Virus record (IMG/VR): IMGVR_UViG_3300045988_126772
Location: 1 to 36,621 of that record
Source of the DNA: a virus
Length of the DNA stretch: 36,621 nt
Strand: one strand, 5' to 3'
The translations under genes were made by a program, and so were the position numbers. Shown here in pieces: positions 13,871-14,488 of the stretch. The notes beneath the pieces were generated by a model. It was not told the origin of the DNA. It saw only the letters and a program-made list of their open reading frames with translations, and ran no database searches. Position 1 is the stretch's first letter. The number at the start of each line of letters is the position of its first letter.

Positions 13871-13893
13871 AAGAGGAGAAAAGATCTCCTCTT
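13871..13893. terminator. Bidirectional hairpin between the convergent endolysin and minus-strand genes
   Basis: AAGAGGAGA-aaaga-TCTCCTCTT gives a 9-bp stem, with T-rich sequence on the + side. Confidence 0.55.
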
Positions 13894-14276
13894 TATTGTA
13901 TATTTTTTAATTTTTGTTGTATATTATATAGTATATCAAATGCCTCTTTACAAGTTGTATTATTTAAATCAATATTTTGTATTTTTTTAATAATTTCACT
14001 ATAAGAGATTGTTTGATTTGAAGATGCAGGAGGATCTATAACTTCAAATTCTATGTTATGAGCATTTAGCAAGTGTAAATATTTTTCTAATTTAGAAATA
14101 GGAAAGCCACACTTAATAATTTCTGGACTCAAGTCGGTTAATTTTAGTCCAATAGCATTTGAAACAATTCTTGCATCTTCATTTAATATATTGTAAAAAA
14201 TACCTACTTTAAAAATATATACTTTACTAGAATCTTTCTTTTTTAATTCATTATACTGATTTAATAATTTGCTCAT
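13893..14276 (-). CDS. Stand-alone MutS domain I-like protein (127 aa)
   Basis: LLNQYNELKKKDSSKVYIFKVGIFYNILNEDARIVSNAIGLKLT...KCGFPISKLEKYLHLLNAHNIEFEV aligns by eye with the MutS N-terminus [44 protein letters not shown]...[25 protein letters not shown]. The mismatch-contacting FYE is FYN here. Confidence 0.6.
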   Translation of the reverse strand: MSKLLNQYNELKKKDSSKVYIFKVGIFYNILNEDARIVSNAIGLKLTDLSPEIIKCGFPISKLEKYLHLLNAHNIEFEVIDPPASSNQTISYSEIIKKIQNIDLNNTTCKEAFDILYNIQQKLKNIQ

Positions 14277-14488
14277 TTTCTTTTTCGACCTTTCTTTCTA
14301 ACTACAATATCACTAATTTCGCAATTAAAAATATCACACATTTTTTCTAATGTTTCAAATTTGATACTGCTTGTTTCATTATTCATTAATCTTGTGAGTG
14401 ATTGATAACCTCCTTCCATATTTTTTACGAACCAGTATTTCGTTTTTTTCTGCTTTTTTAATAATTCTTTAATTTGTAATTGTATCAT
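14273..14488 (-). CDS. XRE-family HTH DNA-binding protein (71 aa), start/stop-overlapped with the MutS-I-like gene
   Basis: RBS ggaggtgattag precedes the ATG. The pattern YWFVKNMEGGYQSLTRLMNNETSSIKFETLEKMCDIFNCEISDIVV is Cro/CI-type. An ATGA overlap joins it to the downstream ORF. Confidence 0.75.
   Translation of the reverse strand: MIQLQIKELLKKQKKTKYWFVKNMEGGYQSLTRLMNNETSSIKFETLEKMCDIFNCEISDIVVRKKGRKRK

Follow-up and report, generated by a model that had tools for sequence, protein, structure and literature searches.

The 36,621-nt viral sequence IMGVR_UViG_3300045988_126772 (IMG/VR; the whole stretch, positions 1 to 36,621, is referred to here as the window) carries a diversity-generating retroelement (DGR). 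About 2 kb from the reverse transcriptase (RT) gene of this element, separated from it by the holin and endolysin genes and encoded on the other strand, lies a two-gene module encoding a helix-turn-helix (HTH) protein and a small MutS-like protein, here called Msl. A first-pass annotation, made by a model from the sequence alone, had described this module as a regulator plus a stand-alone MutS domain I in a lysogeny or moron locus. The positions it gave for the two open reading frames (ORFs) were correct, and they overlap by 4 nt (ATGA), as expected for translational coupling:

13893-14276, minus strand: msl, encoding a 127-residue mini-MutS, identified by Pfam MutS_I, model superposition and a tail hidden Markov model (HMM).

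14273-14488, minus strand: gene for an XRE-type HTH_26 protein of 71 residues with a basic tail and an isoelectric point (pI) of 9.85 (Pfam HTH_26, E = 7.9e-11).

Msl (pI 8.46) consists of domain I (residues 1-~85), a linker (~86-91) and the helix pair of the MutS C-terminal domain (CTD; ~92-125). The likeness to MutS domain I was upheld by a Pfam search, in which PF01624 (MutS_I) matched the product with E = 1.3e-12 and 48.4 bits (gathering score 20.6), residues 4-88 aligning with profile positions 3-91 of 113. Taq MutS was matched in the PDB with E = 5.7e-4. An AlphaFold2 model, made with 20 relatives as input, had a mean pLDDT (predicted local distance difference test score) of 83.9, with values above 90 across residues 11-80, and superposed on MutS domain I. 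The best 50 Foldseek matches of this model in the PDB were all MutS, MSH3 or MSH6 chains (top E = 1.1e-6), and the root-mean-square deviations listed include values of 1.4-2.4 Å across 79-88 aligned columns. The residues F27-Y28-N29 stand at the place of the MutS F-x-E motif, as had been read from the sequence at first pass. MutS_I was the sole MutS domain found in the product, with no MutS_II-V (connector, core, clamp and ABC ATPase).

The description as a stand-alone domain I had to be revised, since the protein's last ~35 residues show homology to the MutS CTD, and this alters which mechanisms come into question. In the model, a poorly predicted linker is followed by helices at residues 92-100 and 109-124, and in an alignment of 20 sequences the tail is the best-conserved part among close relatives. 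When the isolated tails of 10 diverse relatives were compared with 18,950 NCBIfam models, six matched TIGR01070 (MutS) alone, always at positions 805-839 of 840 (E = 0.0026 to 0.11); the 47-residue tail of the window protein, by itself, had no match in the PDB or NCBIfam. With the Msl family profile, residues 821-851 of E. coli MutS appeared as a weak second stretch, and full-length MutS chains of 853 residues outscored 800-residue truncations by 4-6 bits. Real MutS C-termini were then taken from two frameshifted mutS loci and from the intact 870-residue MutS of one surveyed locus, L085. One recovered C-terminus ends in ...ELDINSLTPLEALNKLYELKKKL, and the Msl relative P0136 ends in ...NLDINSLTPLKALEILNELKEKI; the comparison of P0136 with the recovered C-terminus gave E = 1e-8 by BLASTP, and that of the Msl family gave E = 1.3e-5 by hhalign. 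A tail-only HMM (45 positions, 309 sequences) was run against 6,804 ORFs, the full set from the first 92 sources (the window plus L001-L091). Apart from Msl family members, it picked out just the three real MutS C-termini (E = 4.4e-8, 6.7e-8 and 9.7e-6, the third being residues 841-868 of the 870-residue MutS), and the next match had E = 0.07. At L085, Msl matches both ends of the MutS encoded at the same locus with E = 2e-4 each, and the two best segments between the window Msl and this MutS are again its two ends (E = 3e-5 and 0.034). E. coli MutS oligomerises through its CTD (residues 801-853), which is needed for function; deletion of the CTD changes the dimer/tetramer equilibrium to a monomer/dimer one (PMC1636413). 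By virtue of its homologous tail, Msl is thus a mini-MutS, made of a mismatch-binding head, a linker and subunit-pairing helices. It shares with bacterial MutS the fold and sequence of domain I, the Phe wedge, the DA motif, the CGFP motif (MAGIP in MutS) and the helix-loop-helix oligomerisation domain at the extreme C-terminus; unlike MutS, it is without the connector, core/lever, clamp and ATPase domains (~700 residues), and so would form no sliding clamp and could not license MutL.

A word-indexed search found 816 clusters at 90% identity. The best 120 of the 816 are 125-144 residues long and 73-99% identical to the window protein, and the few named clusters among those listed belong to uncultured Clostridia and 'Candidatus Merdicola'. 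An exhaustive search of 50%-identity representatives gave 696 at E up to 1e-3 and 206 at E up to 1e-10; the best 150 of the 696 are mostly 110-150 residues long and were aligned over most or all of the query. Neither the 50,697 phage records nor the 72,556 plasmids searched contained a close Msl homologue, and the 4-kb stretch around the msl locus had no nucleotide match among deposited phages.

Conservation was counted in 309 non-redundant Msl sequences. G25 and D34 are each kept in 308/309, the Phe wedge F27 in 307/309, K55 and F58 in 306/309, G57 in 305/309, A35 in 304/309 and P59 in 303/309. Position 29, where MutS has Glu, is N in 176 sequences, I in 93, L in 25 and V in 9, and is E in 0/309. 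According to PDB entry titles, E. coli MutS E38T, E38A and E38Q have been crystallised on a G.T mismatch; the Glu is therefore dispensable for mismatch binding as such.

Three further ideas about the protein were rejected. A β-clamp-binding motif kept in the linker was suggested by Q88 and Y92, which are invariant in 20 close relatives, but kept in only about half of the 309 sequences. A BLAST alignment hinted that Msl was born by deletion between two AG(I/L)P motifs of MutS, but up to about residue 82-88 both fold and Pfam alignment agree with domain I. The notion that Msl is a remnant of a host mutS split by a prophage was given up because the ORF is intact, both beside the integrase gene and beside host genes.

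The DGR in the window, which the first-pass annotation had correctly reported together with the YqaJ and RecT genes, has the following parts:

8645-10372, plus strand: DGR target gene, encoding a tail fibre of 575 residues, with the variable region (VR) at its 3' end.

~10245-10357: VR, from the repeat shared with the template repeat (TR).

10530-10642, plus strand: TR, from the same VR/TR repeat.

10684-10764, plus strand: RT-18 RNA motif in the gap from TR to the RT gene (E = 1.3e-9 and 65.6 bits with Rfam RF03021, for which the gathering score is 41.3); presumably it forms the structured 3' portion of the template RNA.

10785-11865, plus strand: DGR RT gene, in two frames that meet at a CGG codon at 11343-11345 (Pfam RVT_1 on both pieces; frame analysis).

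11810-12175, plus strand: acidic ORF of 121 residues (pI 4.55) that overlaps the 3' end of the RT gene and has relatives labelled Pfam Phage_tail_APC.

All differences between VR and TR inside the repeat are at TR adenines, and the downstream piece of the RT contains the YMDD motif. A profile search for bAvd found nothing in the window and nothing in any HTH-type locus, and hhalign gave the acidic ORF a probability of 0.05% of matching bAvd, to which it is unrelated. The pI of this ORF, together with the 150-180 residues of its relatives, recalls the CH1 accessory class of Wu et al.; the CH1 class was reported never to occur together with MSL (PMC5758913).

To see how regularly msl accompanies a DGR, relatives were collected from GTDB species genomes (175 relatives, of which 80 loci were examined), from IMG/VR (62 viral contigs) and from metagenomes. 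The 80 GTDB loci all come from metagenome-assembled genomes of gut Clostridia, Erysipelotrichaceae or Bacilli (humans, rabbits, deer, goats, mice and chickens). Loci with at least 4 kb of flanking sequence were scored for a DGR-type RT within 10 kb of msl, with these counts:

GTDB genomes: DGR-type RT in 56/58 loci.

IMG/VR contigs: DGR-type RT in 49/49 loci.

Metagenome contexts: DGR-type RT in 10/10 loci.

Overall, the RT was present in 115/117 loci. In all of nine metagenomic contexts, the HTH-MutS_I pair has the endolysin gene on one side and either the integrase gene or the prophage end on the other, with an RVT_1 gene 2-3 kb away; the phages concerned vary in tail (sipho-like or myo-like), recombinase (Tyr or Ser) and lysin (three types). 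Two layouts could be distinguished. In type 1, that of the window and of 107/117 loci, the HTH and Msl genes are convergent with lysin, holin, acidic ORF, RT, TR and VR, and there is no bAvd. In type 2, Msl, bAvd and RT form operons of overlapping or closely spaced genes without an HTH gene; the Msl proteins of this type are 42-46% identical to the window protein, and the middle gene is identified as bAvd with E = 1e-13 to 1e-23. HTH and bAvd are mutually exclusive across loci. Given an RT within 10 kb in 115/117 loci, and given the Msl-bAvd-RT operons, it is strongly supported that msl is a DGR accessory gene rather than a free moron, in line with the link to the DGR proposed at first pass.

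The same annotation had treated the module as a pair of no known kind, whereas Msl of the window belongs, by its size, near-neutral charge, PF01624 homology and DGR linkage, to a described class. MSL (MutS-like) is one of four classes of DGR accessory gene defined by Wu et al. 2018, with proteins of 112-283 residues and a pI of 7.2 ± 1.7, found in 16/372 DGRs and always with avd; the same survey reported three RTs with a MutS_I-like C-terminal extension (PMC5758913). The class has been attributed to PF01624 (PMC10053308). Like its members, the window protein is small, homologous to MutS domain I and encoded with a DGR RT, and the Msl-bAvd-RT operons of its distant relatives match the ‘architecture D’ described for the class (Wu et al. 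2018; Macadangdang et al. 2024, 10.1101/2024.11.15.621889). Unlike published MSL genes, msl of the window stands outside the core cassette on the opposite strand, and is coupled, in relatives sometimes fused, to an HTH_26 protein. Also unlike the 16 MSL genes of the survey, all of which had avd, it accompanies a DGR without a recognisable Avd, and avd was met only in type 2 relatives; we regard co-occurrence with avd as a correlate from one survey rather than a defining property of MSL. bAvd, like Msl, is a small DGR accessory protein, and adjoins Msl in Avd-type operons, but its fold is unrelated, and HTH-type loci have the basic HTH and the acidic post-RT ORF in its stead. What is new here, then, is the variant layout and the MutS CTD tail: in the Msl papers we found no mention of the CTD tail, the loss of the Glu or the HTH partner.

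The HTH gene is the immediate upstream neighbour of msl in 63/80 GTDB loci, 55/55 IMG/VR loci and 10/10 metagenome loci, and HTH_26-MutS_I fusions of 202 residues occur as four distinct sequences on six contigs (the P0122 cluster). At L154, the HTH-Msl fusion is found at the usual place, between the integrase gene and the lysin-RT block. Because the fusions occur in the same genomic context as the separate genes, HTH and Msl appear to act as one unit. The module is flanked by candidate control signals:

13871-13893, both strands: terminator-like bidirectional hairpin in the gap between the endolysin gene and msl, a pattern match from a consensus scan (9-bp stem, 4 GC pairs, T runs on both strands).

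14515-14543, minus strand: promoter-like site TTAAAA-17-TACAAT upstream of the HTH-msl operon, likewise a pattern match from a consensus scan.

14509-14586: two direct repeats of 16 nt (ATAACTATTGTAAAAG and ATAACTATTTTACAAG), 62 nt apart, overlapping both divergent promoter-like sites.

The two repeats are the only zero-mismatch matches to ATAACTATTGTAAAAG and ATAACTATTTTACAAG in the window, with no copy near VR, and as sequence elements they represent a possible operator for the HTH protein. An equivalent 16-nt repeat was not found in loci related to the window, so that autoregulation by the HTH protein is a guess. The other of the divergent promoter-like sites (TTTACA-17-TATAAT with an upstream TG, 14579-14607) precedes a 47-residue ORF (14630-14773, plus strand), whose relatives (36-66% identity, 42-62 residues) are similarly placed in many related prophages, and which is followed by a 91-residue ORF (14901-15176, plus strand). 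At 14770-14796 on the plus strand, just after the 47-residue ORF, the stretch that separates the msl module from the integrase gene holds a short tandem repeat (ATAATGTCGA twice, then ATAATG), which might be part of attP or close to it.

Several surveyed loci had neighbours of their own. L087 has, besides a 131-residue Msl on the other strand, a second, divergent MutS_I-like gene (12320-12814, minus strand, 164 residues) upstream of a bAvd-like gene and RT. The msl end adjoins a miaB-like gene in L001, L003, L007, L020 and L042, and mutL-miaA in L053; L085 carries a canonical mutS (16951-19563, 870 residues) 6.5 kb from msl. A miaB-mutS-mutL-miaA neighbourhood is common in many Firmicutes and was seen in L011, and its adjacency to msl perhaps reflects just shared integration sites. 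Canonical MutS is thus encoded at least in the L085 genome, and mutL in that of L053.

The split RT gene of the window turned out to be one instance of a wider pattern. Its two frames join at ATA-CGG-TAA, and skipping the C gives GLPI|GNYTSQW. Across loci, 52 RT genes are split and 35 intact, and the same three break points (residues 186/187, ~267 and ~70) recur in dozens of divergent loci. The shift is always +1. Its cause is in every case an additional C that precedes a conserved Gly codon (C-GGN) and so puts a CGG in frame; the codons on either side show synonymous variation, and the two halves both remain open. Five such in-frame CGG codons occur in the window, each at the end of an ORF that continues in the +1 frame:

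5063-5065: tail protein, a single 702-residue ORF in L001.

11343-11345: DGR reverse transcriptase.

21883-21885: RecT.

25678-25680: DNA methylase.

27781-27783: ParB_N joined to methylase.

Codons were counted in all low-GC loci, leaving out L010 and L011 (two unrelated mutS loci). Among 465,207 codons CGG occurred 164 times, 45% of them within 8 codons of an ORF stop, compared with 3-8% for AGA, AGG, CGA and CGT; CGC was also raised, at 23%. In a separate earlier count, 19.4% of CGG codons were junction-like vs 0.49% of all codons. Outside the window, CGG junctions were seen in L016, L021, L084 and many other loci. Host housekeeping genes have such junctions too, including TyrRS (KMSKSL|GNY), FtsY (GVNGV|GKTT, inside the P-loop) and MetRS. 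A one-base skip gives single continuous Pfam matches across the junction for TyrRS, FtsY and the RecT of the window; the MetRS product has two separate matching stretches, the better of them crossing the junction. CGG looks like a nearly unassigned codon with lineage-wide +1 decoding in low-GC gut Clostridia and their phages. A description of CGG-linked +1 decoding was not found in the literature searched, and this observation is possibly more important than the finding on msl itself. Four loci carry a tRNA-Gly(UCC) gene at a distance of ~0.9-2.6 kb from the prophage end with HTH-msl (L034, 4563-4636; L052, 7342-7415; L053, 9050-9123; L055, 8713-8786). It could mark the integration site or be a phage-borne tRNA, and it may bear on the C-GGN frame shifts.

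In the reading that we favour, and for which we consider the scales to be about evenly balanced, Msl would be a DGR accessory mini-MutS that shields the mismatched cDNA:VR heteroduplex from host MutS. From its architecture we infer that Msl dimerises, binds mismatches and affects mismatch repair. Dimerisation would occur through the C-terminal helix pair; domain I keeps the DNA-wedging Phe and has lost the Glu that couples recognition to repair. The dimer would then occupy the mismatch cluster where adenine-mutagenised cDNA pairs with VR of the tail-fibre gene. Lacking the connector, clamp and ATPase domains, the dimer could not license MutL, and host MutS would thereby be kept from its all-or-nothing reversal of newly made variants. 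The basic HTH protein, which is found only in the DGR type without Avd, would as part of the same unit probably serve in autoregulation of the operon or in tethering Msl to DNA.

The idea of an anti-mismatch-repair decoy, raised at first pass, is plausible, and its best indirect support comes from Bacteroides, where deletion of mutS raised DGR mutagenesis 5- to 10-fold and left the mutation pattern unchanged (10.1101/2024.11.15.621889); the unchanged pattern implies that repair of DGR mutations is all-or-nothing. There is a parallel in engineered E. coli DGRs, to which a dominant-negative MutL (MutL E32K) was added (10.64898/2026.07.21.739853). Such inhibitors, which also serve in recombineering, shield, like the proposed Msl, mismatches arising from cDNA or oligonucleotides from repair; Msl differs in being a MutS fragment, natural rather than engineered, and with a mechanism that is proposed only.

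Several points weigh against this shielding role. The putative promoter of msl is its own and lies on the strand opposite the RT gene, so that msl and the DGR may not be co-expressed. The AlphaFold2 confidence of the tail is 58-79, and in the clade of the window the tail is weakly conserved relative to MutS (E = 0.034 for the window protein alone), so that the pairing partner may be either Msl itself or host MutS. In Bacteroides, Msl-less DGRs are constitutively active and Msl-bearing ones are regulated (10.1101/2024.11.15.621889); Msl is therefore not generally needed for activity. MutS was reported to be unneeded for BPP-1 retrohoming (cited in PMC5758913), and functional data on any Msl were not found in the literature searched.

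Alternatively, though we think it rather unlikely, Msl might have a positive part in mutagenic retrohoming that does not depend on host mismatch repair. It could, for instance, recognise or stabilise the imperfect cDNA:VR intermediate or pass it to the replication machinery; in the Avd-less type, the basic HTH protein would supply the nucleic-acid binding. This would suit the place of Msl as an integral member of the operon beside bAvd and RT, the mutual exclusion of HTH and bAvd, and the three RTs with a MutS_I-like extension; the HTH protein is also small and very basic, as Avd was described to be (PMC5758913). Most DGRs, however, work without Msl, given that only 16/372 have one, and the most active Bacteroides elements are Msl-less. 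A motif for contact with the replisome is also lacking at the level of the family, as Q88 and Y92 are kept only in the clade of the window.

A similarly unlikely reading uses the tail rather than the head of the protein. The C-terminal helices might pair with the CTD of host MutS, so that its dimers and tetramers are broken up or mislocalised, and the outcome would be a dominant-negative, cell-wide drop in repair that aids both DGR homing and RecT recombination and needs no binding to the heteroduplex. The homology of the tail to the MutS CTD, which in E. coli governs oligomeric state and in-vivo function (PMC1636413), fits this reading, as do the YqaJ and RecT encoded by the phage and the use of dominant-negative MutL for the same purpose in engineered systems. 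Poisoning through the CTD would have no need, however, for the Phe wedge and the other domain I residues that are near-invariant in the 309 sequences, and a constitutive mutator lysogen would be costly. At L085, the one pair that could be compared, the Msl tail is no nearer to MutS of the same locus than to other MutS.

It is also conceivable, if doubtful, that in an Avd-less class of phage DGRs HTH-Msl takes the place of Avd as the partner that handles nucleic acid; the C-terminal helices would capture host MutS at VR while domain I fills the mismatches, turning repair off locally and not genome-wide. If true, HTH-Msl would be a retroelement-encoded, site-restricted anti-repair device made from the two ends of the host's own sensor.

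We find it improbable that HTH and Msl form a transcription-factor complex acting on DGR or lysogeny genes, in which the MutS-like fold is only an oligomerisation or co-repressor module. The coupling and occasional fusion of Msl to an XRE-type HTH, the overlap of the two 16-nt repeats with the divergent promoter-like sites, and the regulated state of the Msl-bearing Bacteroides DGRs are all in keeping with such a complex, but Avd-type operons have Msl without HTH, the repeats are not kept in relatives, and the conservation of the Phe wedge would go unexplained. Least credible, and to our minds very improbable, is the toxin-antitoxin or defence role offered at first pass as an alternative (or a lysogenic-conversion module unrelated to the DGR): the small upstream HTH gene with its ATGA overlap, as in type II systems with an XRE-HTH antitoxin, the separate transcription unit between the lysis genes and the integrase gene, and a weak resemblance of the HTH to the N-terminus of the PezA antitoxin (E = 2.8e-6, far below the family cutoff) are set against the absence of a toxin-family match and of any PADLOC match at E < 0.001 for Msl or the HTH-Msl fusions, the near-perfect synteny with DGR RT in sipho-like and myo-like phages with varied integrases and lysins, the HTH-less relatives inside Msl-bAvd-RT operons, and the fusions, which would be odd for such a pair.

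DGRs make dense clusters of mismatches, and recent work indicates that host MutS erases most of them. The question of how natural DGRs cope with host MutS has in Msl an obvious candidate answer: the protein combines exactly the mismatch-binding and the subunit-joining parts of MutS, with the Phe wedge nearly always kept (307/309) and the Glu always absent. As a compact natural part, Msl might improve DGR-based or retron-based mutagenesis tools. For the phages of gut Clostridia, the HTH-coupled, Avd-less layout widens the range of known DGR architectures.

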